Positions 19,433 to 34,092 are shown, counted from the stretch's first letter. The stretch: 34,968 bases of DNA from Actinomycetota bacterium (GCA_018896525.1 JAHIMR010000054.1:1-34968), one strand, 5' to 3'. Notes: a model not told the origin generated them from the letters alone. Made by a program: numbers and translations.

Positions 19433-19660
19433 ATGCCGCCTGGAAGGCGGCTACCCCCACCTCAATCCTCCCCCGGGAACCCCCCCCCCATCCTAACCTT
19501 CCCCCAACCCCTAAGACCCCCCATCCCGGCCTTCCCCCCAGTGGGGGGAAGGAGCGGAGGGGGAAGGAAGGGTCAGGGGGGAAGGAGCGGAGGGAAAGGG
19601 AATGCCGGCAAGGTGCCGGCGCTACGGGGTGGGGGAGGGGGGTAAGACCTCATCACTCGG
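19433..19660. repeat. Low-complexity tract: ~95 bp poly-pyrimidine (C-rich) followed by ~110 bp poly-purine (G-rich), centred on the perfect palindrome CCTTCCCCCC-AGT-GGGGGGAAGG. It contains two direct copies of GGGGGGAAGGAGCGGAGGG and an embedded REP-like unit.
   Basis: Seen directly in the sequence. The C-runs give i-motif potential and the G-runs give G-quadruplex potential on the same strand. A 10-bp perfect hairpin core has imperfect extended complementarity. The tract lies 80 bp downstream of the flotillin stop. Confidence 0.6.
19600..19625. repeat. REP-like element (GAATGCCGGCAAGGTGCCGGCGCTAC)
   Basis: It matches the dispersed consensus and is embedded in the G-rich tract. Confidence 0.7.
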
Positions 19661-19787: not shown

Positions 19788-20000
19788 ATGAGTCGCCGTG
19801 TACTGGTCATCATTATCTGCTCCCTGGTCCTGGCAGTATTAATCCTCTCGGCAAGCGCTGTCCAAGGCGAGGGTACATCTGTTTCGGTCAATATGACCAT
19901 GGCCAGGACGATACAGGTGGTGAACGGGGGCGAGTGCCGTTCGAACGTGCCGGTTGTTCGTCAGGTCTGCGGTGGGTTTGTTACTTTCATCTCCCGTTGA
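19788..20000 (+). CDS. Hypothetical small secreted protein (70 aa; signal peptide; two Cys)
   Basis: The N-terminus is MSRRVLVIIICSLVLAVLILSASAVQGE..., and the mature part contains ...GGECRSNVPVVRQVCGG... A GAAGGGGG RBS lies 8 nt upstream. It is convergent with the paralog cluster. There is no homology call, so it may be spurious. Confidence 0.35.
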   Translation: MSRRVLVIIICSLVLAVLILSASAVQGEGTSVSVNMTMARTIQVVNGGECRSNVPVVRQVCGGFVTFISR

Positions 20001-20044
20001 ACAACCTTCGGAGATCTAACTTGCCTGAACCCTGTTTGCGTTGT

Positions 20045-20998
20045 CTACTTTTCGCCCTTACTTTTCTTTCTCCGGCGCCCCACGAGCTTGAACAGTACGA
20101 ATAACACAGCGAGCGGGACAAGGAAGATGAGGAGCAGGGATGTCGGACAGGTGCTGAAACCGGCCGTCCCGGTCCTGGTGGTGTCAAGCTCCAACAGACT
20201 GGGCCCGTACCGGATGTCGACCTTGACGCTGTATGAGCCCAGCAGTGGAGGGTCGGGGATGACCCCCTGGTAGTACCGCTCGGAATCGGGCAATACGGTC
20301 ATCTCTTTCAGTTCCACCGTGCCGTGGCCCCACCCGAAGGAGGGAGTGTAGGTGAGCTTTCCCCTGATGGTGAGGTGTACGTTCCCCGTGTTCTTGAAGG
20401 CCACGCGATACTTCGGCGGTGACACGGGAAGTCGGAGGAGTTCTTTCGTGGGCCAGAACCACTTGCTCTCAACGGAGACCGATGTTATTTCACCTTCTCG
20501 CAGTATCTCTCCCGGGATGGTAATGAGTGCCAGGGAGGCTATCTGTATAACGTCGGTGCCGCGGTGGGACGTAGCGTCGGTGGTCTCCGGAACCTGCCGA
20601 AAGAGGACCGCCCCGAAGTGCCCCCCCGGCTCCGCGTCGGGCGGTGCGGTGGCGGTGAACCTGCTGACTACCCTCTGTCCCGCCGGCACCGTGAACTCCG
20701 GAACGTCGACGGAGAGCCATTTGGCACAGGAGTACGGGTAATGTCCCGGCTCCTCGAACACGCAGGTGCCTTCGGGCTTGACGTAGAAATCCATAAAATG
20801 GAGTGCAAGCCGCTGGTCCGCGGTGCCGCGGTTTTCGACGTAGATCTCAAACTCCCGCGAGGTGCCCGGTTCCATTGTGAGTTCGAACTTGACCGGGGAC
20901 ACGGCTACGTTGAACTCCTGGGCAACGGCGTGGAGCGCCGGAGCGAAACAGGAGATAACCAGAAATATGAATGCCGAAACTGCCGCTGTCTTTCTCAT
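20045..20998 (-). CDS. Cell-surface protein, paralog C of the cluster. It has a signal peptide, a beta-rich ectodomain and a C-terminal TM anchor (DUF916/DufA-like architecture). It lacks the acidic tail.
   Basis: It is 317 aa. The signal peptide is MRKTAAVSAFIFLVISCFAPALHAVAQEF. Conserved blocks shared with the 421- and 429-aa paralogs are FEEPGHY.YSCA.WLS, PPDAEPGGHFGA, NTGNVHLT..GKLTYTPSFGWG and GSYSVKVDIRYGPS. The C-terminal TM LLLIFLVPLAVLFVLF is followed by RRRKKSKGEK*. The conserved terminal motif survives only out of frame downstream (19987..20070). Confidence 0.8.
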   Translation of the reverse strand: MRKTAAVSAFIFLVISCFAPALHAVAQEFNVAVSPVKFELTMEPGTSREFEIYVENRGTADQRLALHFMDFYVKPEGTCVFEEPGHYPYSCAKWLSVDVPEFTVPAGQRVVSRFTATAPPDAEPGGHFGAVLFRQVPETTDATSHRGTDVIQIASLALITIPGEILREGEITSVSVESKWFWPTKELLRLPVSPPKYRVAFKNTGNVHLTIRGKLTYTPSFGWGHGTVELKEMTVLPDSERYYQGVIPDPPLLGSYSVKVDIRYGPSLLELDTTRTGTAGFSTCPTSLLLIFLVPLAVLFVLFKLVGRRRKKSKGEK

Positions 20999-21015
20999 TG
21001 TTTTCCCATAATAGT

Positions 21016-21046
21016 AGAAATCAAGAGGAGTTGCCTCTTGATTTCT
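21016..21046. promoter_or_regulatory. Perfect 13-bp inverted repeat AGAAATCAAGAGG-AGTTG-CCTCTTGATTTCT. It lies 18 bp upstream of the paralog-C start codon, between paralogs B and C.
   Basis: Seen directly in the sequence. No U-tract follows on the coding strand. It could be an operator or an RNA stem-loop (processing or attenuation). Confidence 0.4.
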
Positions 21047-21117
21047 GAATCCTCTGTCCTTTTCCGCGGGAGTTCACGCCTGCTGGTGTGAGGTCGTTGG
21101 TCATGTCGACGGTGGGA

Positions 21118-22383
21118 TTATTTCTTTCGTCCCCTCTTGAACAACCTTCGGAGATTCAACTTGCCTGAACCCCGTTCGCGGAGTTTCTCTTTTTCCCCGG
21201 GCTCTTTCTGTCCCTCGTCGTCGATGTCGTCTTGCTCACCGCCATCGCCGGAATCCTCGTCCCCGGGTATTTCCTCTTTCTCGTCCTCCAACAGTTCGGC
21301 CCAGAGCTCCTCCAGTCGCGGTTCCTTCTCGCCCCTTTCTTCCTTCTCGCCCGCTTCCACTTCAGGCGCTTTTTTCTTTCGTATGAAGAATCTTACCAAC
21401 TTGACCGCAACGACAGGAAGCGAGATAAGGATGATGAGTGCCAGAAGGAGGAAGGCCGGGTAGACGTTGAAGGCGGCGGAACCGGTCTTAGAAGTATCGA
21501 ACTCGTACATATTGGGGCCGTACATGACTTCAACCGTTACATCGTAGGACCCAAGGAAAGGTGGATCCGGAAGGGTCCCCTCGTAGTATCTCTTAGTGTG
21601 GGGCAAAATCACCATTTCGGGAAGCTGGATAGACCCCATTCCCCAGCCGAAAGAAGGAGTGTAGTACAGCACCCCTTTGGTGGTAAGGTGCACGTTACCG
21701 GTGTTATTGACTACCACCCTGTACCCGGGTGACGACCCTCCGATTACCGGTATCTTCTTGGAAGGCCAGAACCACTCGCTCTGGACCGAAACCGACTCTA
21801 TCTCGCCCTCCCTTACTATTAACCCCGGAATGGTTACCAATACCAGGGCGCCAACCCTGCCGGTTGACCGCACCACCGTTTCACCTTCCACCTCCGGTTG
21901 TAGAATTACTTCAAAAAATATGATGGCGTTATGAGTTCCCGGTTCCGCGTCGGGTGGGACCGCGACCGAAAACGGTATCGTCTCTTCCCGGCCCGCGGGT
22001 AACTCGAACTCCTTTATTTCCGTAGTAATCCACCTCGCGCAGGAAAAGGAGTAATGGCCGGGTTCCTCGAACGAAGTCTTGTTGTCCGGCGTTACCGTGT
22101 AATCCATTTCATAGACTCTTAACCGCAGGTCATTGGTGCTCTTGTTCAACAAATTGATATCAAGAGCCTGGGTGGTGCCGGGTTCTATCGTAAGCTCGTT
22201 TATGGATGGCCATAGCTTGATATCGAATTCCTGCGCAAAGCAGGGCGGACAATGGATGCCGGAAAGCCCCAGCGCGATACTGAGCATTATGGTAATCAGT
22301 ACCGGTTTCTTGATTTTCATGAACAAAGAACAACCGGGACCATTTTGGTCCCGGTTGTTGGGCTTGTTCTTACTCGTAGCCAC
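21118..22383 (-). CDS. Cell-surface protein, paralog B. It has a signal peptide, a beta-rich ectodomain, a TM anchor, a poly-acidic cytoplasmic linker and the conserved terminal motif GSGKLNLRRLFKRGRKK.
   Basis: It is 421 aa. The N-terminal region is MATSKNKPNNRDQNGPGCSLFMKIKKPVLITIMLSIALGLSGIHCPPCFAQEF. The real start may be the internal Met (MKIKKPV...). It has the same conserved blocks as the paralogs. The TM is FLLLALIILISLPVVAV, followed by KLVRFFIRKKK. The E/D-rich linker is about 90 aa, and the terminus reads ...GEKEKLRERGSGKLNLRRLFKRGRKK. Confidence 0.85.
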   Translation of the reverse strand: MATSKNKPNNRDQNGPGCSLFMKIKKPVLITIMLSIALGLSGIHCPPCFAQEFDIKLWPSINELTIEPGTTQALDINLLNKSTNDLRLRVYEMDYTVTPDNKTSFEEPGHYSFSCARWITTEIKEFELPAGREETIPFSVAVPPDAEPGTHNAIIFFEVILQPEVEGETVVRSTGRVGALVLVTIPGLIVREGEIESVSVQSEWFWPSKKIPVIGGSSPGYRVVVNNTGNVHLTTKGVLYYTPSFGWGMGSIQLPEMVILPHTKRYYEGTLPDPPFLGSYDVTVEVMYGPNMYEFDTSKTGSAAFNVYPAFLLLALIILISLPVVAVKLVRFFIRKKKAPEVEAGEKEERGEKEPRLEELWAELLEDEKEEIPGDEDSGDGGEQDDIDDEGQKEPGEKEKLRERGSGKLNLRRLFKRGRKK

Positions 22384-22409
22384 TCGCGCCTAATGCTTCA
22401 AATGCTTCA

Positions 22410-22937
22410 CTAAATCGCGGTTACGGTATAGACCTGGGTCGGAGTTAAGACCGGGAAAGCATAGGGGCCAGCCCATATATTGAAATCTTTGCTCAGTTGG
22501 AAGTTGAAATCCCAGCTCTTGACCCCTCGGTCTCCGTGGGCGAGTAGGACACCCATGTTAGCCTGGAAGCCTCCGGTCGCGACATCGAAGGTGACACCGG
22601 CGGACGGATTATTCTGCAGGAACGTGAACTGAGTATCACCGATAGTCCGCCCTGCAGCGGTTCCGGATCCCGTAAGGATGGGCGTGGTTGTCAACGTGAA
22701 GTTCCACAGCGTGTTGCTCTTTATTGCCACCGCGGAGGTCATTGTCGCGGTGGTCACTGGATCCGTCGGTACGATAGCGCCAAAATCAATAGCGGTAGGA
22801 GTCATAGTGAAATTGAGAGTGGGGCTGTAGGTCGCGGTAACCGTAGGACTCGCTGTCTGCGCAAATCCTCCAACCCCCATAAACGCGATTAGAAGGACAC
22901 CCGCGACAGCACTTGCGATAATAAGCCTCTTCTTCAT
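22410..22937 (-). CDS. Small secreted Thr/Ala-rich beta protein (175 aa), cassette partner of paralog B. It may be a WxL-like or pilin-like surface protein.
   Basis: The N-terminus is MKKRLIIASAVAGVLLIAFMGVGGFAQTA (signal peptide). The mature part is Thr-rich (...AVAIKSNTLWNFTLTTTP...NIWAGPYAFPVLTPTQVYTVTAI). It shares the blocks AVxxKSNxxW and a C-terminal aromatic/W motif with the 166-aa protein at 24691..25191. The start ATG is at 22937, with a GGAGGTG RBS. The long ORF extends to 22964. Confidence 0.75.
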   Translation of the reverse strand: MKKRLIIASAVAGVLLIAFMGVGGFAQTASPTVTATYSPTLNFTMTPTAIDFGAIVPTDPVTTATMTSAVAIKSNTLWNFTLTTTPILTGSGTAAGRTIGDTQFTFLQNNPSAGVTFDVATGGFQANMGVLLAHGDRGVKSWDFNFQLSKDFNIWAGPYAFPVLTPTQVYTVTAI

Positions 22938-22994
22938 TTCCGCACCTCCTGAATCTCTGACCATTTTACGGTCACCTATGAACTATAATTACAC

Positions 22995-23170
22995 ATTGAT
23001 TATAACGGCACTTATGCTCAGCTGTTACTGTTTGAAGGTATTAAGGAACGAACCGGTCATATGAAGTAACGAATGTACCGTGACGGGGAACGAATGACCA
23101 AATGGGGGATAAGAATATATCACCCGATCGGGGGATGAATCCACTCTTTTCCTTGTTTTTCCCCCGAGTG
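22995..23170 (-). promoter_or_regulatory. Conserved cassette leader, copy 1. It has three direct repeats G[GT]AACGAA at 21-bp spacing (23044, 23065, 23086), symmetric elements (GGTCAT...ATGACC, CCGTGACGG, CATATG), and a degenerate GC palindrome followed by a T-rich tract.
   Basis: It is about 80% identical to 25320..25495. It lies 60-230 bp upstream of the small secreted gene at 22937. Confidence 0.5.
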
Positions 23171-23235
23171 AGCGCACGCCTGGTGCCAGGCACCGTTGTT
23201 GCGGGCACCGTTGTTGCGTCATGCAGACGGTGGGC

Positions 23236-24525
23236 TTATTCCTTTCGTCCCCTCTTGAACAACCTTCGGAGATTCAACTTGCCTGAACCCCGTTTGTGGA
23301 GTTTCTCTTTTTCCCCGGGCTCCTTCTGTCCCTCGTCCCCGTTGTCCTCCCGCTCCCCGGCGTCGCCGGAATCCTTTTCATCCTCCTCTGGTAGCACCTC
23401 TTCCTCGACTTCCTCCCCTTCAGATACCTCTTCTCCCCCGGCTTCTTCCTTCTCCTCTTCTTGCTCTTCTTCGGGTTCTTCTTCTGGTTTCTCCTCCCAG
23501 ATAGTCGAAAATGATGTCCAGGATCTCTCTTCTGGCTCCTCCTTTTCCACCTCTTCTTTCCCCGGTGCCTTCTTACCCCGCTTCCGCTTGATGAACACAA
23601 CGGTAGCAGCAATCACCCCCAAGAGGACCAGCACCAGAAGGATTGCCAGAATAGGGTACGAGTTAAATCCGCAACTCATGGTCTTGGTCGTATCAAACTC
23701 AAAGAGGCTGGGGCCGTAAGAGATTTCGGCCTTCAGCTTGTACGAGCCAAAAAGCGGCGGTTTCGGTATTTCTCCCTTAAAATTCCTGGTGGTCCCGGGT
23801 AGCACCGTCGTCTCGGGCAGGTCGATGGTGCCAACTCCCCAGCCGAAAGAGGGTCTATAGGTCAGCTTACCCATAATGGTGAGATGGACGTTCCCCTTGT
23901 TTTCAAAGACCACGCTGTAACGAGTCGGTGAACGGGGAAAAACAGGAAGCCGACGAGTTGGCCAGAGCCAGTTGCTGGTTGCCGAAACCGACTTTATTAC
24001 ACCATCGCGTACTATCTCCCCCGGAACGGTAATCAAGACCATTGCGGCGATGCGGGCTGAGACCTTTACGGGTTCCTCCGCTTCTTCGGGGGCGGCCTGC
24101 TGGAAGATTATAGCCCCGTAGTGCCCACCCGGTTCCGCTTCGGGCGGGACATGCAACCCGAAGGTCTTGGTCGCGCTACTGGTCTCCGCCGTACCGCGAC
24201 CAGGTAACGTGAGTTCGGGGGTCTCGGTGGAGAGCCAGGTAGCACACGAATAAGAGAAATGCCCGGGCTCTTCGTAGACGACAGTGTTGTCGGGCTTCAC
24301 GTAGTAGTCCATGAAGTAGACATCGAGAGCATGGCTCTTTTCGGTGAAGTTTTCAACAGTTATATCGAACTCACTGGAAGCACCCGGATCGGCGGTGAGC
24401 TCCAGCTTGGAGGGAGAAACTCTCACGTGGAACTCTTCCTGGGCGTAGGAGACGGTCGCCGGGAGCGAGATTGAAACGATGAGCGCCAGTAGCAGTGAAA
24501 GCGCGGCTTTTTTCATGGTCTTCAA
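23236..24525 (-). CDS. Cell-surface protein, paralog A. It has a signal peptide, a beta-rich ectodomain, a TM anchor, a poly-acidic cytoplasmic linker and the conserved terminal motif GSGKLNLRRLFKRGRKE.
   Basis: It is 429 aa. The signal peptide is MKTMKKAALSLLLALIVSISLPATVSYAQEEF. It has the conserved paralog blocks. The TM is ILAILLVLVLLGVIAATVVF, followed by IKRKRGKK. The acidic linker reads (EEKPEEEPEEEQEEEKEE...). The last ~80 nt are almost identical to the 3' end of paralog B. Confidence 0.85.
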   Translation of the reverse strand: MKTMKKAALSLLLALIVSISLPATVSYAQEEFHVRVSPSKLELTADPGASSEFDITVENFTEKSHALDVYFMDYYVKPDNTVVYEEPGHFSYSCATWLSTETPELTLPGRGTAETSSATKTFGLHVPPEAEPGGHYGAIIFQQAAPEEAEEPVKVSARIAAMVLITVPGEIVRDGVIKSVSATSNWLWPTRRLPVFPRSPTRYSVVFENKGNVHLTIMGKLTYRPSFGWGVGTIDLPETTVLPGTTRNFKGEIPKPPLFGSYKLKAEISYGPSLFEFDTTKTMSCGFNSYPILAILLVLVLLGVIAATVVFIKRKRGKKAPGKEEVEKEEPEERSWTSFSTIWEEKPEEEPEEEQEEEKEEAGGEEVSEGEEVEEEVLPEEDEKDSGDAGEREDNGDEGQKEPGEKEKLHKRGSGKLNLRRLFKRGRKE

Positions 24526-24690
24526 ATAAAAAAACCCTTCTGTTTTACACGTGTGTGTTTATATCGAAGATCATTACGCTAGCTCAGCTCGGCTCAGTAT
24601 CATAAAAAATTACAAATAATAAGACCGGCTCAATCTACCTGGCTGAGCAAACGTACTATTCAATTGATTTTGTGCGTTGGTCCCGGCTCA

Positions 24691-25191
24691 TCAGTTGCTG
24701 GCGGTATAGGTGTGACTACAGGTGTAGTTAGCGGCCACCTCGAGAAGCCACGCAGCCGCCGGCGTCAGGTCGACCTTGTAGGTGAACTGGCCGTCGAGAT
24801 AAGTTCCCCTTGCACCACTCAGGCATGTACCCGCGATGGTGGGGTATTGAAGGTTGGTGACTCCTGTAGCCCCAGTCGCAGTCGTGGTCAAAGTGAAGTA
24901 GGACGAGGGTATCGTATTTAGACCAGACGTCAGCAAGCCGCCCGTGCTCACCGTAACCGTCCAAGCAGCGTTACTCTTTACCGTTACCGCGAGAACATTG
25001 GTTTGCGAGGTGCCCGGGATAGCAGTAATGGCTGCGGTGCTGGGTATCGAGAATTCAAGCGCCGGGGCAATCCCAACAGTTGGCGTCACGGGGGCGGCTC
25101 CAGCCACCCAGGCTCCCATAAACATAGACAACACAAGCATTCCAACCAGTGTTACACCAGCCAATACGCAAAACTTATGTACCTTCTTCAT
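24691..25191 (-). CDS. Small secreted Thr/Ala-rich beta protein (166 aa), cassette partner of paralog A
   Basis: The N-terminus is MKKVHKFCVLAGVTLVGMLVLSMFMGAWVAGAAP (signal peptide). It contains ...AVTVKSNAAWTVTVSTGG...PAAAWLLEVAANYTCSHTYTASN. It is paralogous to 22410..22937. A GGAGGTGA RBS lies 7 nt upstream. Confidence 0.75.
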   Translation of the reverse strand: MKKVHKFCVLAGVTLVGMLVLSMFMGAWVAGAAPVTPTVGIAPALEFSIPSTAAITAIPGTSQTNVLAVTVKSNAAWTVTVSTGGLLTSGLNTIPSSYFTLTTTATGATGVTNLQYPTIAGTCLSGARGTYLDGQFTYKVDLTPAAAWLLEVAANYTCSHTYTASN

Positions 25192-25319
25192 AATCTCTCA
25201 CCTCCTTTCATCCTTTCTCATGAGTCACGAATAATACGTCAGCACTAACTACCTCTAGTACTTACGTACTACCTTCCTCTAATACCTCTAACTGAGGCTT
25301 TTCGTAACAGCCTCCACAC

Positions 25320-25495
25320 CCATTACAACGGCACTTGCGTTCCGAGGGTGTAGTCCTTGAAGGCATTAAGGAACGAACAGGTCATATGAAGGAACGAACG
25401 TACCGTGACGGGGAACGAATGACCTCATGGGGTGATAAGAATTCATCCCCCAATCGGGGGATGAATCCACTCTTTTCCTTGTTTTCCCCCTTCTT
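25320..25495 (-). promoter_or_regulatory. Conserved cassette leader, copy 2. It has GGAACGAA x3 at 25370, 25391 and 25412 (21-bp period) and the 12-bp-stem palindrome GAATTCATCCCCC-AATC-GGGGGATGAATCC (25439-25468) with flanking T/U-rich runs.
   Basis: Seen directly in the sequence. It aligns with 22995..23170. It lies 130-300 bp upstream of the small secreted gene start at 25191. Confidence 0.5.
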
Positions 25496-25520
25496 GAGCG
25501 CGGGCGTCGGCCCGCGTCCG

Positions 25521-25588
25521 GGGAACGGTTGCCGGCGGGATGCCGGCGCTACGGAAAACGGGGAATGCCGGCAAGGTGCCGGCGCTAC
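25521..25588. repeat. Two tandem REP-like units, 8 bp from the stop of the 1643-aa gene
   Basis: The units are GGGAACGGTTGCCGGCGGGATGCCGGCGCTAC and GGAAAACGGGGAATGCCGGCAAGGTGCCGGCGCTAC. They sit in the same position relative to the gene 3' end as the 6-unit array at 812-1024. Confidence 0.8.
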
Positions 25589-25596: not shown

Positions 25597-28500
25597 CTAT
25601 TCCCCGTATCCACCGATGGTGCAGGTTCCCGCTCCCCGGTCGTTCCAGTACATGGCCCGCTCGGCCATTATCTTCGCTCCAGCGGTCTTGCAGGTAACCA
25701 CTATAGCGGCCTGGCCGTCGGGAATCTCGTCCGCCATGTTGAAGGTGGCACGGGAACCGGCGGCAACCGTGGCGGTGAAGGTGGCGTTATTGGTGCCGTC
25801 GGGTGTCAGGTAGGTTACCTCCACCTCCACGGCGGTATCGTTGGGGTTGGCCACCAGGGTGTACGTCTCGTGCCCGTCAGCGGTCTTCCCGTCGGGCAGG
25901 TAGAACGTGGTGTGGGGCCCGGCCAGGCCCACGGTGTCGTGGGACGCCTCTCCCAGGGGTGTGTCGGCTCCCCAGTACATTGCCCTCTCGGCGACTATCG
26001 GTTTGTCGGCGCTCACGGCAATGGAGAAGTCGGTGTCGGGGAGTACGTCGTTGACCCTTATGGTCTCCCTGGAGTCCGGTGGCATTTTGAACGGGGGCTG
26101 GGGCACCGGTCCCCCGCCGGTCATGTAGGTGACGGTCACCCGCGCCTCGCTGTCGCCCGGGTTCTGTACCAACAGGTAGGTCTCAAAGCCGTGGGCGCAT
26201 GTGCCCTCGGCCAGATAGTAGTCGGTCTCGGGGGTGGTCGCCCCGATTGAGTCGTGGCCCTCCCGCCTGCTGTTCCGGTACATGCTCCTCTCGGGGATTA
26301 CGGGCAAGTCGGAGTCCACCTTGATGGAGGCGTTCCTCTGCCCGATGTCATCCGCCATGTTGTAGGTGGCCCGGGAGTTGGCCGGTATCTTCTTCTCGAA
26401 CGTCTTCGACTCGGCCGCGCCGGTGGCGTCCTCCCCTGTCATGTAAGTGACCTGGCAGGTCGCATCGGTGTCGTTGGGGTTCTGTACGAGCAGCCAGGTC
26501 TCGAAGCCGTAAGCGCTGCACCCCTCGGGGAGGTACCAGGTCTCCGCGGGGGCGTTCACCCCTATCGAGCAGTGGCCGTCAGGGGAGAGTGCTCCCTGGC
26601 CGGTCCACCACATGGTGCGGTCCACCGCTATCGCCTTTCCCTCGGCGCAGACGACCCGGCATGAGAAGTCGGTCTCGAACGGTAGGTCGTTCGCCGGGGC
26701 TACGGACGTCTGGGAGAGGGCGGGCAGCAGGAGCGGGTCCCTCTGTACCGGGCCGTCGGGGGTCATGTAGGTGACGTCTGCGGTAACGTCCTCGTCGTTG
26801 GGGTTCATCAGTGTTATGTAGGTGTTGAAGCCCCAGGCGGTGGTGCCCTCGGCCAGGTACCAGCGCGAGAGTTCGGATGGTTCTTCTCCCGGAAGAGCTA
26901 CCACGAACCGGGACAAGCCCCCCACTTCCGCTGTCAACCTGTCGGCCTCGGTGTCCCTGCTCTTTGTGCGATCGACCCAGCTTCCGCTCTCTTCATGGAG
27001 TATCACCAGTCGGGATTCCTCTTCCGGTGATAAGCCGGAATCAGGGTAGGACAGGGTGACCCTGACGTTTCCACTGTATGTCGCGGTGGTCGAGACGTCC
27101 CGGCAGGTTCCCCGGACCACCAGGTAGCCGCCTGTCCCGGGGTCCGGCTTCTCGTCCGAGGTGGTGATTCCCGCGGAGGTAACCCGGTCAAACTCGACCG
27201 TTGTGGCTGAATCGGGGTTTACCTTGACGCCGGTTCCCTCGGGGGTGTTTACAACGGCGAAACCACCGGCAAGGGCGCGGGGCGTTTCGTTCCCGGATAC
27301 CAGGTTCACATCCCGTCCCCCCAGGGACGCGTTTGGCGAGATGGTGATGTTAGCGGTTGCTTTGTCAGGTTGGATATCTTTTATGTAGTTGACCGCTATC
27401 CCCTCTCCGAAGCCGGCCTGGCCCGAGAGGTCGAAGTGGGTTTCATTTCCTTCAATGATGACATCCCCGGTCCAGCCGGGCAGGCCGTACGAGGCTTCAG
27501 TGCCGGTAATAGCCGGGTCGGGGCCCACCATGAAGCCACCCGCCAGGGGGACTGCCTCCTCGGCACCGGTCACCACGCTGATGTCCCGCGGCCCCCGGGC
27601 GGCATAGGGATCGATGGTGATCTGGACACGGAGTTTGGTGTAGTCAAAAATCTGGAGGCTGCCCGGGACAACGGCAATACCTTCCCCGAAATCGACAACG
27701 CTGGAACCGTTGAAGTGTGTATACGCTCCAACCACCTCCACCGTCATGGTCTGGCCGGGATTTCCCCAGGTAGGATAACAACGCTTGATGAACGGCGGGT
27801 CGCAGTACAGGATCGTGCCGCCGTCTCCAACCGCCCAGATGTTGCTGGTGTCGAAGCCGTCGACGCCGTTGAGTTGCACCGTTACCGGACTCTCCTGGGG
27901 GGCCCATGCAGAGCCGTTGTAGAAGAGTATGGTGCCGCCGTCGCCCACAGCCCAGACGTGGGTGCCGTCCACGGCGGACACGCCGCGCAGGGTGACGGTT
28001 GTTCCGCTCGCCTGGGGGGTCCAGTTGGTCCCCCCGTCGGAGGTGTACAGGATGGTGCCGCTGGCCCCCACCGCCCATACTATGGAGGTTGAGAGGGCCC
28101 GGACCCCGTGGAGGTTGGCGGTGGTGCCGCTGGTCTGGCTGCCCCAGGCAACGCCGTCCGTCGTCCTATATATCCTGCCCTCGTTGCCCACCGCCCAGAC
28201 GTAGAGGGTGGAGGCGGCGGAGACCGCGTTCAGGGGCCTGTCGGTGATGTCGTCGTACTGTTTAGACCAGGTACCAGCAGGAGGAGGGGTTTTCCAGAGC
28301 CAGATGTTTCCTATCGAGGTGACATCCCAGATACGGTTGGTCGCCGGGGCCGTCACCCCGGTGTTGGATTCGCCGGCGGAGGTCGCCTTGAGGGCCCACG
28401 TGCTTCCGTTGAAGTAGAGGTCCTCGCCCCTCGACAGGGACGGGTTCCACCCCACCGCCCAGGCGAAGGTCGTGTTGACGGCGGAGACGGCGTTCAGGTT

Positions 28501-30459
28501 GACGGCGGTGGGGCAGGACTGTGGTGTCCACGTCTCGCCGCCGCTGGACGTGTACTGTATGGCGCTGTTGTCGCCCACCGCCCAGACCACGTCCGTGCTC
28601 AAGGCGTCCACGCCCCGGAGGTTCTCGGTGGTCCCGCCGGAGAGCGCGGACCAGGCAGAGCCGCCGTTGAAGAGGGCGGTGCCGGCGTCCCCCACCGCCC
28701 AGGCGCTGTTCGCGTCAAAGGCGGAGACGCCGCGCAGGGCCACGGCCGTGCCGCTGGCCTGCGGTCCCCAGCTCGTGCCGTTGTAGTGGCGTATGGTGCC
28801 GTTCGCCCCAACCGCCCATACACAGTTGGCGGCGGCCGCGCTCACGGCGTTCAGGTTCACAGCGGTCCCGCCGTCCTGCACGCTCCAGGAGGTTCCGTCG
28901 AAGAACAGGACGGTGCCGGTGTCTCCCACCGCCCAGACGTGGGTGCTGTCCACGGCGGACACGCCGCGCAGGGTCACGGCCGTTACGCTCGCCTGGGAGG
29001 CCCAGTTGGCCCCCCAGTCGGAGGTGTACAGGATGGTGCCGCCGGCCCCCACCGCCCAGGCGCTGCCGGTGGAGAGGGCGCTTACCCCGTAGAGGTTCTG
29101 CGCGGTGCCGCTCGCCTGGGTGCCCCAGTTGGTGCCGCCGTTGGCGGTGTAGCGTATCATTCCGGTCGCCCCCACCGCCCACACGTGGCTGGTATCCAGC
29201 GCGACGATATCGTAGAGCGGGTAGTCTATGTTCAACTGGGTGGTCCAGCTAACGCCGTCCCACTTGTATATCCACCCGTCCTCGTCCACAATCCACACGC
29301 TGTTGCTGGCCGCGGCAGCGACGCTGACTATCGAGTAGCCTGTCAGGGTCGCGCGCAACGACCACGAACCGCCATAATACCGCAAGACCTCCCCTCGCGT
29401 CAGTGCCGCGTTCCAGCCGACCGCCCAGGCCTCGTCCGCGCTTACCGAGTCCACGTCCAGGATGTTGGCGGTGGTGCCGCTGGCCTGTTCGGTCCATCCC
29501 CCTCCGCGGGAGAAGAGGAACTTTTCCGAGCCCACGGAGTAGACATGGGTGGAATCCAGGGCACAGACATCGTATAAGTCCTGGGTGGTGCCGGAGGGCT
29601 GTTCGGTCCAGGACACGCCGTTATAGTAACTGATCTTTCCGTCCCATCCCGATACCCAGACATTGCTGTTGCTCAGGGCGGAGATGTTTACGGGCCAGTA
29701 ATCATAAAGTCCGGTACTTTCCCAGGTCACTCCTTTGTTGCTGGACTTGAGAACCTCGCCCCACCAGGTTATGGACCAGATGTCATTAGCGCTGCAGGCC
29801 GAGACCATGTAAGGGTCGTGGTCATCGGGACCTCCACCCGGATTTACCACCTGCCAGCTGGTACCGTTGTAGTAGTGGGTCTCACAGTCCACGGCCCAGA
29901 CGTTGTTCGCGTCATAACCGGAGATATCCACCAGCCCGCCGGAAGGGTAGGTGTACTGAACGCTCCAGGAAGTACCGTTATAGGCGAGGATCGTCGCGTT
30001 CGTAAAACCGTTGGAGTCACACACGGCCCAGACGTACGGGGTTCCAGGGGCCAATTGCGGGGTGGCCCAGACCGCCTCCAGGTCATATGCGGTGACGCCT
30101 ATTCCCTGCTTGCTCCAGCTGGTTCCGTTGTAGTACAGGATGGTGCCGGCCTCGCCAACCGCCCACACGTTAGTCGCGTCAAGGGCGTGGACGCCATTCA
30201 GGTTATAGGTTGAGCTGCTGTACTGCCGCCCGAGAGTGGTTCCGTTGTAGAAAAGAATAGCTCCACCAGCCCCTACGGCCCAAACATGTGTTGAGTCGGC
30301 CGCGGACACGCTGCCACTGTACTGTCCTTCGGGAAGGGGGTTCTGCTTTATCCAGGTGTAGTCGTCCCCGGCAAGGCATTCCGCGCTCATCGAGAATATA
30401 AGCGCGATGGTGATTATCGCTGCCAGGACCACAAGGCCCCTTCGATGCGCACCCATCAT
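25597..30459 (-). CDS. Giant secreted surface protein: about 21 BNR/Ycf48-like beta-propeller blades (probably three 7-bladed propellers), Ig-like/IPT domains, and 4-5 C-terminal repeats of the shared module
   Basis: The signal peptide is MMGAHRRGLVVLAAIITIALIFSMSAECLAG. A GGGAGAG RBS lies 7 nt before the ATG-ATG at 30459. The longer ORF extends to 30528. The blades read ...VWAVG..GTILYTSDGGTNW..Q.SGT...L.GVSA.D..... The C-terminal repeats (WYLAEGTTAWGFNTYITLMNPN...) are about 75-80% nt-identical to the 3' end of the subtilase gene. The protein ends ...ERAMYWNDRGAGTCTIGGYGE. Confidence 0.85.
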   Translation of the reverse strand: MMGAHRRGLVVLAAIITIALIFSMSAECLAGDDYTWIKQNPLPEGQYSGSVSAADSTHVWAVGAGGAILFYNGTTLGRQYSSSTYNLNGVHALDATNVWAVGEAGTILYYNGTSWSKQGIGVTAYDLEAVWATPQLAPGTPYVWAVCDSNGFTNATILAYNGTSWSVQYTYPSGGLVDISGYDANNVWAVDCETHYYNGTSWQVVNPGGGPDDHDPYMVSACSANDIWSITWWGEVLKSSNKGVTWESTGLYDYWPVNISALSNSNVWVSGWDGKISYYNGVSWTEQPSGTTQDLYDVCALDSTHVYSVGSEKFLFSRGGGWTEQASGTTANILDVDSVSADEAWAVGWNAALTRGEVLRYYGGSWSLRATLTGYSIVSVAAAASNSVWIVDEDGWIYKWDGVSWTTQLNIDYPLYDIVALDTSHVWAVGATGMIRYTANGGTNWGTQASGTAQNLYGVSALSTGSAWAVGAGGTILYTSDWGANWASQASVTAVTLRGVSAVDSTHVWAVGDTGTVLFFDGTSWSVQDGGTAVNLNAVSAAAANCVWAVGANGTIRHYNGTSWGPQASGTAVALRGVSAFDANSAWAVGDAGTALFNGGSAWSALSGGTTENLRGVDALSTDVVWAVGDNSAIQYTSSGGETWTPQSCPTAVNLNAVSAVNTTFAWAVGWNPSLSRGEDLYFNGSTWALKATSAGESNTGVTAPATNRIWDVTSIGNIWLWKTPPPAGTWSKQYDDITDRPLNAVSAASTLYVWAVGNEGRIYRTTDGVAWGSQTSGTTANLHGVRALSTSIVWAVGASGTILYTSDGGTNWTPQASGTTVTLRGVSAVDGTHVWAVGDGGTILFYNGSAWAPQESPVTVQLNGVDGFDTSNIWAVGDGGTILYCDPPFIKRCYPTWGNPGQTMTVEVVGAYTHFNGSSVVDFGEGIAVVPGSLQIFDYTKLRVQITIDPYAARGPRDISVVTGAEEAVPLAGGFMVGPDPAITGTEASYGLPGWTGDVIIEGNETHFDLSGQAGFGEGIAVNYIKDIQPDKATANITISPNASLGGRDVNLVSGNETPRALAGGFAVVNTPEGTGVKVNPDSATTVEFDRVTSAGITTSDEKPDPGTGGYLVVRGTCRDVSTTATYSGNVRVTLSYPDSGLSPEEESRLVILHEESGSWVDRTKSRDTEADRLTAEVGGLSRFVVALPGEEPSELSRWYLAEGTTAWGFNTYITLMNPNDEDVTADVTYMTPDGPVQRDPLLLPALSQTSVAPANDLPFETDFSCRVVCAEGKAIAVDRTMWWTGQGALSPDGHCSIGVNAPAETWYLPEGCSAYGFETWLLVQNPNDTDATCQVTYMTGEDATGAAESKTFEKKIPANSRATYNMADDIGQRNASIKVDSDLPVIPERSMYRNSRREGHDSIGATTPETDYYLAEGTCAHGFETYLLVQNPGDSEARVTVTYMTGGGPVPQPPFKMPPDSRETIRVNDVLPDTDFSIAVSADKPIVAERAMYWGADTPLGEASHDTVGLAGPHTTFYLPDGKTADGHETYTLVANPNDTAVEVEVTYLTPDGTNNATFTATVAAGSRATFNMADEIPDGQAAIVVTCKTAGAKIMAERAMYWNDRGAGTCTIGGYGE

Positions 30460-30639
30460 GCCAACTCTCCCTGCCCCCGGCATGGGGGCTTGCCTCCCTG
30501 CCCCGTTCAAAGGCGCCACCCAGACCATTCGTTGCTTCTATTATAGACTATATCGGTTGCTTCCGCTGTTATCTGTAACCTATAACGGCCGTGGGCCCTT
30601 TGCGGATACCCCCCGGCGAGTCTCCCACCCCATAGCACC

Positions 30640-30790: not shown

Positions 30791-30983
30791 ATTGGCAAGG
30801 TCCTGGCGAGGGAGGGCGCCCAGTCCGTCTCCGTTTGGAAACGTGCCTCGCCAAACACGCCGTCGGCGTTGTATCCTATGGATGCGAGATGAAGTTGCTC
30901 CCGTGGGATTGTCGTGGGAACTGGAGGTGCCTGTGGCTGATTCACCAGGTAGTACGATAACCGCCCAGGAGAAGATAGAAGAG

Positions 30984-31277
30984 ATGGTGCGTCGTATCGT
31001 CGGTCAGTTCGACCCGGAGAGTATCATCCTCTTCGGCTCTCATGCCCGGGGGACCGCTGGGCCTGACAGCGACGCGGATTTGCTGGTCGTAATGAACGTC
31101 AAGGGCTCCCGCAGGGAGAAAGCCACCGAGATCGATGTTGCGCTGGTGGGAGTAGGCCTTCCCAAAGACCTTATCGTTGTTACGCCAGACGATGTTGAGA
31201 GGAGCCAGGACCGGGTAGGGACTATCATACACGCGGCTCTGCAGGAGGGAACGGTGCTCTATGAGCGGAGAGCCTGA
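30984..31277 (+). CDS. Minimal nucleotidyltransferase (MNT), the antitoxin of a HEPN/MNT module
   Basis: It contains ESIILFGSHARGTAGPDSDADLLVV, the GS...D.D motif of the Pol-beta NTase fold. It overlaps the downstream HEPN gene by 17 nt. The start is the ATG at 30984, with an AGGAG RBS upstream. The ORF extends to 30792. Confidence 0.8.
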   Translation: MVRRIVGQFDPESIILFGSHARGTAGPDSDADLLVVMNVKGSRREKATEIDVALVGVGLPKDLIVVTPDDVERSQDRVGTIIHAALQEGTVLYERRA

Positions 31278-31677
31278 GAGCACCCATACTGTTGTGCAAT
31301 GGATCGAGAAAGCGGAAAATGACCTCAGAAACGCTGAGTATACACTCACGCTCCAGGACAACTGCCCGTTCGACACGATCTGCTTTCACGCGCAGCAATG
31401 CGCCGAGAAGTATCTGAAAGGGCTTCTCTTCTTTCTTTCAATTTCTTTCCCAAAAACACATGACCTCGAAGCGTTGACAAGCCTGGTGCCAGACGATATC
31501 TCACTTGGGTTGGACATGGGCGCCGTCTTGTCTTTGAACCGCTATACGATCGAGGCGCGCTACCCGGGTGACTGGGAGCCAATTGCGAGAACTGAAGCCG
31601 AGAATGCCGTCGACGTCGCCCGGAGGGTCCGTGAGGCGGTCAGGAACAACCTCCCGGATGAGATAACAGGCCGGTAG
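31261..31677 (+). CDS. HEPN-domain protein, the toxin partner of the MNT
   Basis: It is 138 aa. It has a HEPN-like helical bundle with the ...IEARYPGDW... motif region. Its N-terminus is WIEKAENDLRNAEYTL. It is coupled translationally to the MNT gene. Confidence 0.8.
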   Translation: MSGEPESTHTVVQWIEKAENDLRNAEYTLTLQDNCPFDTICFHAQQCAEKYLKGLLFFLSISFPKTHDLEALTSLVPDDISLGLDMGAVLSLNRYTIEARYPGDWEPIARTEAENAVDVARRVREAVRNNLPDEITGR

Positions 31678-31875
31678 TTTCCTTCGTCTCGCTGGTTCCT
31701 TCAGAGCGTGGATTCCCTCGCTTTTTCTATTGACTTGCCTGCTCTGCTTGTGTTACTATCTGCTTGTATTGCTATCCTCTCCTCCTCTCCAGAAGGCTGG
31801 TGGGTCATCCCCGACGCTTTCGTCCGTCCCCCGGTGGGGATGGGAACCGGGACTGTTCCCCGGGAGTGCCGGTTT

Positions 31876-31898
31876 GTAGCGCCGGCAACTTGCCGGCA
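31876..31898. repeat. REP-like element in inverted orientation (GTAGCGCCGGCAACTTGCCGGCA)
   Basis: It is the reverse complement of the consensus TGCCGGCAAGTTGCCGGCGCTAC. It lies about 60 bp upstream of the Flp pilin gene. Confidence 0.7.
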
Positions 31899-31955
31899 AT
31901 CAACGTGGCCGACAAGCCGCCCGGAAGGCGGCGCGAAGAGAAAGGAGACCGGCAG

Positions 31956-32132
31956 ATGGAAGAGATAAAGCGGCTGATTCGTGAGGAGGAGGCCCAGACC
32001 ACCGCCGAGTACGCGCTGGTGATACTGGGGGCGTCGGCGGTAGCCGGAGCGCTCATCGCCTGGGCGGCGGGCGGAGAAGCGATAAAGGGCTTCTTCACCA
32101 AGATCTTCGACAAGCTCACCAGCGGCCTGTAG
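31956..32132 (+). CDS. flp: Flp/Fap-family type IVb pilin (Tad pilus major subunit)
   Basis: The 58-aa product is MEEIKRLIREEEAQTTAEYALVILGASAVAGALIAWAAGG... The G/Q-TT-EY prepilin processing motif is followed by a hydrophobic helix. An AAAGGAG RBS lies 8 nt upstream. The 122-aa ORF in the track is a 5' extension. Confidence 0.8.
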   Translation: MEEIKRLIREEEAQTTAEYALVILGASAVAGALIAWAAGGEAIKGFFTKIFDKLTSGL

Positions 32133-32140
32133 GAGATGCC

Positions 32141-32668
32141 TTGTACGGGGTAGTGTCGCTGGTCATACTGGTCGCGTTCTGCCTGGCGGCGATGTACGTC
32201 GACGTGCGCCGGGGCAGGATCCCCAACCTCTTGAACGCCACCGGCTTCATGGCGGGAGTCCTGCTGGCCTGCATCACCGATGGCACGAAGGGCCTGGCGG
32301 GAAGCCTTTCCGGGTCGCTTCTGGGGCTGTCGATCCTGCTCCCGCCGTTCCTTCTTCACATGGTGGGCGGTGGCGACGTCAAGTTCCTTGCCGCGTCGGG
32401 AGCGATCGTCGGGTGGCACGTGCTGTGGGTTTCCTTCCTTGCCGGGGCCACCCTTGGAGGGCTGACGGGGATTGCCCTGCTCGTCGCCCGCGACCGCTCT
32501 ATCGAGCGGCTCCTCGCGCGCTTCGTCCTGCTGAAGGCGGGGCTCCAGCGGAAGCAATCGATCGTGCCCCGTTCAATCGCCGGGACGTGCGCCCACACGC
32601 GGATGCCGTATGCGGTCCCCCTGTCCGCGGGGCTCATCGCCGTGTCCTCGATAACTCTATTGATGTAA
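32141..32668 (+). CDS. cpaA: Prepilin peptidase CpaA/TadV (A24 family)
   Basis: The 175-aa polytopic membrane protein has DVRRGRIPN and GGGDVKFLAA motifs, the two catalytic Asp regions of TadV/CpaA. It starts at TTG, and an AGGAG RBS lies 5 nt upstream. Confidence 0.75.
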   Translation: MYGVVSLVILVAFCLAAMYVDVRRGRIPNLLNATGFMAGVLLACITDGTKGLAGSLSGSLLGLSILLPPFLLHMVGGGDVKFLAASGAIVGWHVLWVSFLAGATLGGLTGIALLVARDRSIERLLARFVLLKAGLQRKQSIVPRSIAGTCAHTRMPYAVPLSAGLIAVSSITLLM

Positions 32669-32712
32669 GGGTGTTCGGTTTGAAGACGAAGCGGCGTCGG
32701 CACAGTAGGCGC

Positions 32713-33102
32713 ATGACGAGAGGTGGCTCGCCGGGCCAGGCAACGGTGGAATTCGCCCTGGTTCTGCCCACGCTCCTTATTGTGGTGGTAGCGGTCTGCC
32801 AGGTCGCCATTGCCCTGAACTGTTACCTGGTGGTCACCTCCTCCAGCCGCGAAGGCGCGCGGCGTGGTGCCGAGACCAACGACGTCGAGGAGGCCCGCGG
32901 GGCCGCGCTCGACGCATCCGCCGGCCTCCCCGGGGACCCACCCGGCGTTGATGTCGGCTTTCCCGAGGGGAGGTCCAAGGGCTCACCGGTGAAGGTTACA
33001 GTCACTTACCGTATGCCTCTTCTCCTGCCGGGGATCAGCCACCTCATAGGTGAGCCATCGTTTAGCGGCTCCACCTCCATGGCGCTGGAGAGGGATGATT
33101 GA
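32713..33102 (+). CDS. tadE: TadE-like pseudopilin
   Basis: It contains GQATVEFALVLPTLLIVVVAVCQVAIAL, the TadE N-terminal processing motif plus TM. In-frame alternative starts are a GTG at 32671 and a TTG at 32680. Confidence 0.7.
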   Translation: MTRGGSPGQATVEFALVLPTLLIVVVAVCQVAIALNCYLVVTSSSREGARRGAETNDVEEARGAALDASAGLPGDPPGVDVGFPEGRSKGSPVKVTVTYRMPLLLPGISHLIGEPSFSGSTSMALERDD

Positions 33103-34069: not shown

Positions 34070-34092
34070 TCTACAAGGAAGGGTTGCCGGTT

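Follow-up and report, generated by a model that had tools for sequence, protein, structure and literature searches.

A duplicated cassette of WxLIP-like membrane proteins and small secreted subunits remotely similar to TLP-1 protomers, with putative LytTR-type promoters, in an Actinomycetota bacterium

WxLIP, of the Firmicutes WxL/WxLIP surface system, is described as part of a wall-associated complex and not as a pilus chaperone. TLP-1 fibrils are orphan fibrils, imaged in pond water. The WxLIP protein carries a C-terminal transmembrane (TM) anchor (PMC10599100), and TLP-1 has been solved experimentally as a donor-strand-exchange fibril (TLP-1a/1b; PDB 9ikj, 9ikk; CryoSeek; PMC11494351). The sites of LytTR regulators are 9-bp direct repeats with 12-bp spacers, located upstream of the -35 element (PMC6193735). 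The locus described here lies in a 34,968-nucleotide stretch of DNA from an uncultivated Actinomycetota bacterium, referred to below as the window. It encodes a pair of proteins, S and L, which is a distant relative of the WxL/WxLIP system and is probably related to the machinery behind the TLP-1 fibrils.

The region is a tandemly duplicated cassette, in which S is the small secreted subunit and L its membrane-anchored partner. All five open reading frames (ORFs) are on the minus strand, where they had been predicted. In cassette 1, S175 (22410-22937; the annotated 175-aa form, P0112) can be extended to an upstream ATG, giving S184 (22410-22964). It is followed by L400 (21118-22320; annotated start MKIKKP at 22320, P0015 being the 400-aa form), composed of the ectodomain, a TM helix, an acidic tail of ~94 aa and the terminal GSGKLNLRRLFKRGRKK; a GTG start at 22383 yields the longer reading, L421 (21118-22383). 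Cassette 2 consists of S166 (24691-25191; P0120) and L429 (23236-24525), the latter with a signal peptide, two beta-sandwich domains, a TM helix and a disordered acidic tail. Both S products are small secreted Thr-rich beta-sandwich subunits. The third paralog, L317 (20045-20998; 397 bits with the large-family HMM), has a signal peptide, a two-domain ectodomain, a TM helix and a short basic tail, with neither an acidic linker nor its own S gene upstream. The original prediction of three large paralogs, two of them each preceded by a small one, agrees with these data: the three L proteins (317, 400/421 and 429 aa) are pairwise 45-51% identical and all contain the quoted conserved blocks, and the two S proteins, 31% identical to each other, have 19-20% Thr in their mature parts.

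Several hairpins accompany the cassettes. Between S175 and L400, a hairpin with a 14-bp stem and a terminator-like match (22329-22359, minus strand) ends 8 nt before the L400 ATG; its predicted fold of -38 kcal/mol (z = -4.98) was equalled in stability by none of 200 shuffles. GC-rich hairpins of the GCCGGCACCTTGCCGGC type flank the cassettes on both sides, with two copies at 25525-25588 (minus strand; repeat family D9), downstream of the gene for a 1643-aa protein, and a third, identical copy at 19598-19625, which has a terminator-like match at 19620-19604.

The L proteins appear to be remote relatives of the DUF916/WxLIP superfamily rather than members of the curated families, and the kinship proposed for the large paralogs is thereby borne out. 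In the Pfam search, two of the three window proteins matched PF06030 below the threshold (17.2 and 16.3 bits, against a cut-off of 27.3), and 43 of 112 L-family members match it (E up to 0.01, best E 1.2e-9). The family profile also matched EfmWxLIP1 in the PDB (E 7e-4). The AF2 model of L429 contains the expected beta-sandwich ectodomain, with one sandwich at aa 34-167 and a second at aa 175-289, followed by a TM helix at aa 292-317 (nt 23575-23652). The pLDDT of the ectodomain is mostly >90 (blocks 85-98), and that of the acidic tail is about 45-51. In the Foldseek search of the PDB, the top match of the modelled ectodomain was Enterococcus faecium WxLIP 9i25_C (E 3e-11; 259 columns aligned to the 251-residue chain), and 9i1y was a further WxLIP match. 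Thus, the tandem pair of Ig-like domains and the C-terminal TM helix of the WxLIP architecture are present in L. The next matches were the chaperones CfaA, Caf1M, CsuC, FimC and EcpB (E 3e-10 to 2e-7), so that L also has the two-domain shape of PapD-like chaperones, at the level of fold only. Two L relatives bear the name 'PapD' in the JGI annotation.

The acidic tail ending in RR[LW]FK..RRK, noted in the original prediction as a module not known from DufA proteins, is a clade-specific extra of the L family. This cytoplasmic tail is 50-260 aa long and closes with a basic motif. In L429 it is disordered and acidic (aa 318-429; 43 D/E and 25 K/R in the 117 aa counted) and ends in GSGKLNLRRLFKRGRKE (nt 23239-23289). 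The predicted GSGKLNLRRLFKRGRK end is found in L421 and L429, but L317 stops short of it, after KLVGRRRKKSKGEK. A relic of the tail end (…QGSGKLDLRRLFNGR and a stop codon) persists out of frame downstream of the L317 stop codon, at 19987-20044 (minus strand), and the 106-nt repeat D1 shows 74-77% identity with the 3′ termini of the L400 and L429 genes. The truncation is not an assembly error, because exactly this 317-aa protein is encoded on 10 contigs that were assembled independently. Immediately downstream of L317, and convergent to the L genes, lies a mini-ORF of 70 aa (19788-20000, plus strand), encoding a signal peptide and a mature peptide of ~43 aa (GTSVSVNMTMARTIQVVNGGECRSNVPVVRQVCGGFVTFISR). 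At its N-terminus it aligns with the beginning of the S profile, it is called as a gene in 5 independent assemblies, and its position and orientation are kept in loci L001, L003, L013, L016, L017, L018, L019 and L021. This secreted mini-protein and the acidic tail of L, which lies in the cytoplasm and ends in the basic RRLFKRGRK, may act as accessories of the cassette.

The proposal that the small proteins are WxL domains did not hold. No PF13731 match was obtained for S166 or S184 in the Pfam search, and none (0/146) is among the matches listed for the 146 S relatives, so the two or more clustered WxL-domain proteins typical of a WxLIP cluster were not found. The PDB sequence search gave no WxL match, and the top 50 to 60 fold matches of S included no WxL chain. 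The S proteins have one W-x-[LVF] motif only (SN..W.L), as opposed to the two Trp-x-Leu motifs of WxL, and a C-terminal Y-T-A-T. WxL identity was therefore rejected. Judging from sequence, the nearest experimentally characterised relative of S is the TLP-1 fibril protomer, although the similarity is remote. An S profile (A7) matched 9ikk and 9ikj in the PDB with E 0.011 and 0.04, and hhalign paired the S family with an alignment of TLP-like proteins at a probability of 84-91% (E 1e-6 to 8e-6) over only 63-79 N-terminal columns, which span the donor strand, beta2 and the SS..W.L strand. At the C-terminus, a G-x-Y-x5-Y motif is common to S and TLP-1, and the spacing P/A-15, G-14, Y-12, Y-6 recurs in the S logo and in TLP-like proteins, e.g., PGVYTMNVKYVLMEN. 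S has an N-terminal strand with alternating hydrophobic residues and a C-terminal strand motif at invariant positions (G-14, Y-12 and Y-6). In the AF2 monomer model of S166, a beta-sandwich (pLDDT 74), the mature N-terminus (~aa 29-44) is unstructured, with a block-mean pLDDT of 56-61 over aa 21-40.

The association of the two genes extends well beyond the window. As the original prediction implied, small and large genes co-occur: in each of the 16 distinct close-clade loci with upstream DNA, S is the gene directly preceding L. Broader profiles place the S domain beside L in Saccharibacteria, Thermoleophilia and Gaiellales, either as a stand-alone protein or at the extreme C-terminus of proteins of 560-1157 aa. 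On freshwater contigs, an L homolog lies just upstream in six of the eight TLP-like loci for which upstream DNA is available. An example is the segment 5416-6333 of locus L104, upstream of a TLP-like gene, which aligns with the L family over both domains (hhalign probability 98.2%, E 6e-14) and has no TM helix.

These observations suggest a fibre-forming system on a monoderm cell surface, a reading that we hold to be about evenly balanced between right and wrong. In this model, L would be a type-I membrane protein of a presumed single-membrane bacterium, with an ectodomain homologous to WxLIP (DUF916/DUF3324) and shaped like PapD-type chaperones. We infer that, once S has been exported, L takes it up on the outer side of the membrane through beta-strand complementation, in the way that WxLIP binds WxL and PapD binds pilins. 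The S subunits would then polymerise by donor-strand exchange through their own N-terminal strand, as the TLP-1 protomer does in the solved fibrils, with the membrane-anchored L serving as chaperone and probably also as base anchor. No usher would be needed, because there is no outer membrane. The fibre-forming reading is weakened by the short reach of the S/TLP-1 alignment (63-79 N-terminal columns, PDB E 0.011), by the best fold match of L being a wall-complex protein, by the TM anchor and long cytoplasmic tail of L, absent from known chaperones, and by the lack of a LytTR regulator gene in the window.

Possible, though somewhat doubtful, is a non-polymeric complex of the WxL type, where L would stay on one S domain in a 1:1 complex by strand insertion and anchor or present it, with no fibre formed. 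Elsewhere, L would likewise anchor or present the giant proteins whose last domain is S, and S would be the functional analogue of WxL. Such an arrangement agrees with the top fold match of L, a WxLIP bound to a long WxL, and with the C-terminal TM anchor common to L and WxLIP (PMC10599100). With S as the whole of small proteins and as the C-terminal domain of large ones, alongside L, the loci are laid out like the clusters of small WxL, large WxL and WxLIP (PMC9772566, PMC10599100), and the S domain, like WxL, always occupies the extreme C-terminus. However, S has no detectable similarity to WxL in sequence or fold, its conserved N-terminal strand aligns with the TLP-1 donor strand, and L homologs accompany the subunits of a solved fibril.

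It is unlikely that L acts as an anchor or a receptor for the giant DUF5719 exoproteins encoded nearby (protease, phosphoesterase, BNR propeller), with the cassette tethering secreted enzymes to the envelope and S as an accessory. In 9 close-clade loci the gene immediately downstream of L does encode such a giant, and the window itself encodes four, but the window giants have no S domain and the L/S pairing reaches phyla whose listed gene neighbours have no DUF5719 match. The four giants and the Tad-type genes said to be close by are both seen among the window ORFs. The wider notion of a cell-surface island holds only in part: the DUF5719 giants keep synteny with the cassette across related genomes, but no link between the cassette and the Tad genes was found.

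Each cassette is preceded by a conserved block of ~180 bp (minus strand), at 22992-23175 for cassette 1 and 25315-25501 for cassette 2. The blocks are 86-92% identical, and the coding DNA between them is far less conserved (31-67%). The '175-bp leader' of the original prediction is therefore a real conserved element, but it lies mostly upstream of the predicted -10 and would be, instead of a leader that is transcribed, a promoter carrying direct repeats of the LytTR type. In cassette 1, boxes TTCGTTCC, TTCGTTAC and TTCGTTCC stand exactly 21 bp apart (23045-52, 23066-73 and 23087-94), a -35 (GTAACA, 23023-23028) and a -10 (TATAAT, 22999-23004) are predicted downstream of them, and the block includes a palindrome, ATCACCCGATCGGGGGAT (23119-23140). 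Cassette 2 has three perfect TTCGTTCC boxes in the same 21-bp register (25370-77, 25391-98 and 25412-19), a predicted -10-like TGTAAT (25322-25327) and the palindrome at 25441-25466. In both blocks the boxes keep the spacing typical of LytTR promoters (9-bp direct repeats, 12-bp spacers), and those of cassette 1 precede a predicted -35. Three boxes at exactly 21-bp spacing recur in 10 further orthologous promoters. The observed triples have 0-5 mismatches, as against at least 6 for the best triple among 20,000 shuffled windows. Reading the block as a transcribed regulatory RNA, be it a riboswitch, an sRNA or a leader, would explain a palindrome able to fold and a block far better conserved than coding DNA, but this is very improbable, given that no Rfam family reached its gathering score, that the conserved core is upstream of the predicted -35/-10, and that three 21-bp-register direct repeats and the -10, and no conserved helix, are kept across genera. 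Each cassette would have its own promoter, and we infer that a LytTR-family response regulator, encoded elsewhere in the genome, binds the three 9-bp repeats and activates the cassette. A neighbouring Response_reg+LytTR gene is found in 10 related loci; none is among the ORFs of the 35-kb window.

The putative promoters resemble those of the AgrA, ComE and HdrR/BrsR type in their 9-bp direct repeats with 12 bp between them, upstream of a weak -35. They differ in having three repeats (possibly four) instead of two, in the box TTCGTT(C/A)C, in a gap of ~16 bp to the -35, and in having no regulator gene in the window. Chaperone-usher pili (PapD, FimC, Caf1M, CfaA, CsuC) share with the S-L pair the boomerang-shaped fold of two Ig domains, a small beta-sandwich subunit with an N-terminal extension, conserved aromatic and glycine residues in the C-terminal strand of the subunit, and the tip-adhesin-like layout of a large protein with a C-terminal subunit domain. 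In contrast, S-L has neither usher nor outer membrane (no usher family is among the Pfam matches of the window ORFs), the chaperone-like L is membrane-anchored, and L does not belong to the PapD families at the sequence level.

The likeness to TLP-1 fibrils includes the alignment of the S family with the N-terminal donor strand, beta2 and the following strand, and the L-family gene that precedes TLP-like genes as well. However, TLP-like protomers are ~100 aa longer than S, with large loop insertions, their genes are on low-GC contigs (~32% GC), the L homolog there has no TM anchor or tail, and a protein of ~1180 aa follows. In the one locus scanned, L104, the T9SS sorting tail of a giant neighbour suggests Bacteroidota as the source.

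The WxL/WxLIP clusters (CscA/DufA) of Lactobacillales and Bacillales share the build of L, i.e., a signal peptide, two Ig-like sandwiches and a C-terminal TM helix, together with weak but consistent PF06030 homology and WxLIP as the best PDB fold match. Common to both is also a partner domain that occurs alone in small proteins and C-terminally in large ones, with strand complementation as the proposed binding mode. No LPxTG partner was seen among the window ORFs inspected. The S-L pair differs in that the partner of L is not a WxL domain and that its hosts are Actinomycetota and Patescibacteria, as opposed to Firmicutes. Furthermore, L extends into the cytoplasm with an acidic tail of 50-260 aa that closes on a basic motif, and the cassette, accompanied by a conserved 70-aa mini-ORF, appears to be under the control of LytTR-type promoters.

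The five genes of the original prediction were all recovered on the minus strand: L317 (20045-20998), L429 (23236-24525) and S166 (24691-25191) as they stand in the ORF list, L421 (21118-22383), for which the public annotation begins at MKIKKP (22320) and gives 400 aa (L400), and S184 (22410-22964), annotated as a 175-aa form with its start at 22937 (S175). The conserved blocks that it quoted are present in the large membrane-anchored L proteins, which are 45-51% identical in pairs. The identity between the two small secreted S proteins is 31%, and Thr makes up 19-20% of their mature part. The window is one contig of a MAG labelled 'Actinobacteria bacterium', and close relatives carry the names Geothermincolia, Anoxymicrobiaceae or Actinomycetota. 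The stop of L317 falls shortly after the TM helix, and the tail end (…GSGKLDLRRLFNGR) is kept out of frame just 3′ of it. This truncation is real and an assembly error is ruled out, because the identical 317-aa protein is encoded by 10 contigs assembled independently of one another. A scan of the window for tRNA and tmRNA genes gave no match.

Direct Pfam and NCBIfam scans gave no supra-threshold family for the five proteins, and PF06030 (WxLIP_PGBD, formerly DUF916) matched below threshold in L317 and L421, as the only Pfam family signal there. With L429 as the query, 111 relatives were retrieved, and PF06030 is matched by 43 of the 112 sequences of the L family alignment (best E 1.2e-9). The L family profile finds the WxLIP of E. 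faecium in the PDB (9i25, 9i1y; E 7e-4). The AF2 model of L429, built on the 112-sequence alignment, is confident, with ectodomain pLDDT mostly above 90. It shows two beta-sandwiches (aa 34-167 and 175-289) that lead into a TM helix (292-317), beyond which the tail is disordered. In a Foldseek comparison of the model with the PDB, WxLIP is the top match (E 3e-11, the alignment spanning both domains), followed by the chaperone-usher chaperones CfaA, Caf1M, CsuC and FimC. Taken together, the family, profile and fold matches make the DUF916 resemblance noted for the large proteins right at the superfamily level, and the model shows L as a WxLIP/PapD-like, TM-anchored two-sandwich protein. WxLIP proteins combine a PGBD, an HBD and a TM helix, are essentially confined to Lactobacillales and Bacillales, and are predicted to complete the WxL sandwich with an inserted strand (PMC10599100, PMC9772566). 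A scan of GTDB species genomes revealed 268 loci with an L relative in Actinomycetota and Patescibacteria; its query consisted of 32 close sequences, as the full 112-sequence alignment was too diverse.

The small proteins required a different approach. Word-indexed homolog searches were nearly blind to them (6 and 13 matches), and an exhaustive representative profile search was needed, which yielded 472 S clusters, most of 150-175 aa and some of 440-570 aa with the S domain at the extreme C-terminus. No Pfam or NCBIfam family matches the S proteins of the window. The WxL resemblance suggested for them is not supported, and PF13731 (WxL) is absent from the Pfam listing of 146 sampled S relatives. 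Five of these 146 match DUF4402, a domain for which no literature was found and which gave no match in the TLP fragment and nine weak S relatives. The S profile A6 had no match in the PDB, and the broader profile A7 matched 9ikk (E 0.011) and 9ikj (E 0.04) over its N-terminal 60 residues. These entries are TLP-1a/b, fibrils discovered by cryo-EM in pond water, which assemble by donor-strand exchange via the N-terminal beta1 strand and for which the discoverers could not name the source organism or the genes (PMC11494351).

A metagenome scan with the TLP fragment uncovered 31 low-GC freshwater loci encoding TLP-like proteins of 265-271 aa, among them those at L104 7923-8720 and L089 1191-2003. 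In profile-profile comparison, the S family matches these proteins with a probability of 84-91% (E 1e-6 to 8e-6), and in their C-termini (PGVYTMNVKYVLMEN) P-15, G-14, Y-12 and Y-6 are spaced exactly as in the C-terminal logo of the S family. Six of the eight loci with upstream DNA have an L-family homolog close upstream of the TLP-like gene, and its presence was no part of the search criterion. An example is the protein encoded at 5416-6333 of the freshwater locus L104, which hhalign places with the L family over both ectodomain domains (probability 98.2%, E 6e-14); it has a signal peptide and a weak PF06030 match and is devoid of TM helix and tail. The S-L pairing thus recurs around the subunits of a donor-strand-exchange fibril of solved structure; S and the TLP-1-type subunits are probably homologous, and L homologs accompany the latter. 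Candidate TLP-1 fibril loci are L104 (5416-13072), L107, L089, L114 and L117, all of them low-GC freshwater loci with encoded proteins that share 72-76% identity with the modelled TLP-1b sequence. The gene order there is an L-like chaperone without TM helix, the TLP-like subunit, a second subunit-like protein of 240-250 aa, a protein of ~1180 aa containing prealbumin-like domains, and an FKBP isomerase of four domains. The giant encoded upstream, as scanned in L104, has a T9SS sorting tail, which suggests a host among the Bacteroidota.

The original prediction also required the small and large genes to occur together in related genomes. One to three S genes lie directly upstream of L in all 16 distinct close-clade loci with upstream sequence, and S is an obligatory neighbour of L. 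The broader S profile places S domains beside L genes in Saccharibacteria, Thermoleophilia, Gaiellales and others, as stand-alone proteins of ~180-210 aa, as forms of ~345 aa, or at the C-terminus of proteins of 560-1157 aa. This layout fits the scheme of small WxL, large WxL and WxLIP and that of pilin, tip adhesin and chaperone alike. In the preferred reading, L would bind S by strand complementation, and S would then polymerise into a fibre anchored at the membrane; as a whole, this mechanism is given about even chances. S may instead stay in a WxL-like 1:1 surface complex with L, in line with the WxL scheme that the layout also fits and with the WxLIP fold of L; with the TLP-1 resemblance of S pointing to a fibre, this is a possible but minority reading. 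That the cassette anchors DUF5719 enzymes is improbable: it is prompted by synteny, a DUF5719 giant being located 3′ of the cassette in nine related loci, and no S-like domain was found in the giants of the window.

These four giants (1033-4716, 7144-11268, 11429-13801 and 25597-30528, all minus) have in common C-terminal DUF5719 repeats with a WYLAEG…NP motif and differ in their heads, which are an S8 subtilase, a metallophosphoesterase, one without an assigned domain and a BNR/YCF48-like propeller. No literature on DUF5719 was found. Further neighbours include a Tad-type set (31764-33945, plus strand) composed of a Flp-like DUF4244 protein, an A24 prepilin peptidase, a TadE-like protein and a fusion of a TadE/G-like N-terminus with an NlpC/P60 peptidase, for which no secretion ATPase or platform genes are present within the window. 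Two putative toxin-antitoxin pairs (30792-31677 and 34033-34748, plus strand) are also present, one of the nucleotidyltransferase/HEPN type and the other with a 101-aa ORF ahead of a HicB-like antitoxin.

Positive-inside residues place the L tail in the cytoplasm. In the close clade, the tails are D/E-rich and 50-260 aa long; about 20 terminate in RR[LW]F[KR]x[RK][RK]K and the rest end otherwise, and in distant L forms of ~310 aa the TM helix is followed only by a short basic stretch (RKRFRFRIERK). The tail is disordered in the L429 model. Matches of this tail to SIT, SpoIIIAH, SAG1386/EF1546 and AuxB, and to calnexin in the PDB, were dismissed as compositional. Another clade (L035, L058, L065, L049 and L060, from Thermoleophilia, Gaiellales and Actinomycetes) encodes an L of ~455 aa with a different conserved cytoplasmic end (…RIGLLSEIGxIDDLL), which goes together with a further, shorter L paralog and with a protein of ~1110 aa ending in an S domain. 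From this difference, the tails appear to be clade-specific modules. It is a guess that the basic-aromatic end binds the membrane or docks a cytoplasmic partner.

The conserved leader claimed upstream of each cassette is real as conservation and is read here as a promoter rather than a leader. The two blocks are 74-86% identical in 90-nt windows and 86-92% across the repeat cores. Each contains three TTCGTT(C/A)C boxes with a spacing of exactly 21 bp; in cassette 1 they are followed by a -35/-10 pair (GTAACA, 18 nt, TATAAT). In the same arrangement, three boxes and then a GCCGTTAnnn element precede the first S gene in L001, L003, L004 (twice), L007, L008, L010, L015, L016 and L021. The observed triples show 0-5 mismatches, and the best triple in 20,000 shuffled windows had at least 6. 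Direct repeats of 9 bp with 12 bp between them, situated upstream of the -35 element, are the binding sites of LytTR proteins (PMC6193735). A Response_reg+LytTR gene is immediately upstream in 10 related loci; none is within the window, and no Rfam family reaches its gathering threshold in the whole window. The promoter carries LytTR-type repeats, and from these sequence features the block is best read as LytTR-dependent. A conserved 118-aa cytoplasmic protein (…PWPSxEARERYxxFLxLEL…) is encoded 5′ of the regulator in L001 (7946-8302), L004 (7136-7492), L016 (3997-4353) and L021 (2705-3061). No histidine kinase adjoins the regulator in the related loci, with the exception of a 903-aa receiver-containing protein in L008.

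The two cassettes form a mosaic, in which 21082-21257 corresponds to 23200-23379 (L 3′ ends) and 23024-23200 to 25347-25525 (promoter blocks). At the nucleotide level, identity is 74-86% across the blocks and the final ~170 nt of the L genes (81-82% for that stretch in L400 and L429), in contrast to 31-67% for the S genes and L ectodomains (S coding 31-47%, L ectodomain 46-67%). Regulatory and cytoplasmic ends are thus conserved or homogenised and extracellular parts diverged, a pattern suggestive of gene conversion or strong constraint acting on the ends, with diversification outside. Between S175 and L400, a hairpin with a 14-bp stem (22329-22359, minus; -38 kcal/mol, z = -5) ends 8 nt before the L400 ATG and may be an attenuator setting the subunit-to-chaperone ratio; the comparable S-L hairpin of cassette 2 is not significant (z = -1.16). 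In the database homolog P0010, a comparable segment (peptide or hairpin-forming) is retained. The cassettes are bracketed by a 28-nt GC-rich hairpin element (GGGAATGCCGGCAAGGTGCCGGCGCTAC) at 19598-19625, 25525-25552 and 25561-25588, two copies being 100% identical about 5.9 kb apart. It is probably a terminator or a REP-like element, and the S gene in L003 is preceded by a hairpin resembling it.

Immediately 3′ of L and convergent to it, a mini-ORF of 70 aa (19788-20000, plus), kept in at least eight related loci, encodes a signal peptide and about 43 mature aa beginning with an S-like strand; its role as a donor-strand cap or nucleator is pure speculation. Its 3′ end overlaps the L317 tail relic in antisense. 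Between the Band_7 gene and the mini-ORF, a purine-rich low-complexity stretch (19433-19645) contains GGGGGGAAGGAGCGGAGGG repeated in tandem, with C-rich inverted arms next to it.

Chaperone-assisted donor-strand exchange is regarded as a hallmark of Gram-negative chaperone-usher pili, and to our knowledge a dedicated PapD-like chaperone is absent from the known donor-strand fibres of archaea and monoderms (TasA, bundling pili, cannulae). Here, a membrane-anchored PapD/WxLIP-like partner appears coupled to TLP-1-like subunits, and the window system is plausibly linked both to pilus assembly of the chaperone type and to the orphan TLP-1 fibrils. If the mechanism holds, chaperone-assisted donor-strand exchange extends to monoderm bacteria, the enigmatic WxL/WxLIP system gains a mechanistic relative, the pond-water TLP-1 fibrils gain candidate gene loci and an assembly factor, and the LytTR boxes provide a defined promoter/regulator pair open to experiment. 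A broader proposal is tentative and rather doubtful: the S-L pair would define a class of chaperone-assisted donor-strand-exchange pili that spans phyla and has so far gone unrecognised, including the orphan TLP-1 fibril genes and their assembly factor. Its WxLIP/PapD-like chaperone would be anchored in the membrane in monoderm Actinomycetota and Patescibacteria but soluble in Bacteroidota, and Firmicute WxL/WxLIP would be a derived branch. Compared with this Firmicute system, that of the window belongs to the same WxLIP superfamily, whereas it occurs outside the Firmicutes, has another partner domain, and adds the cytoplasmic tail, the mini-ORF and LytTR control.
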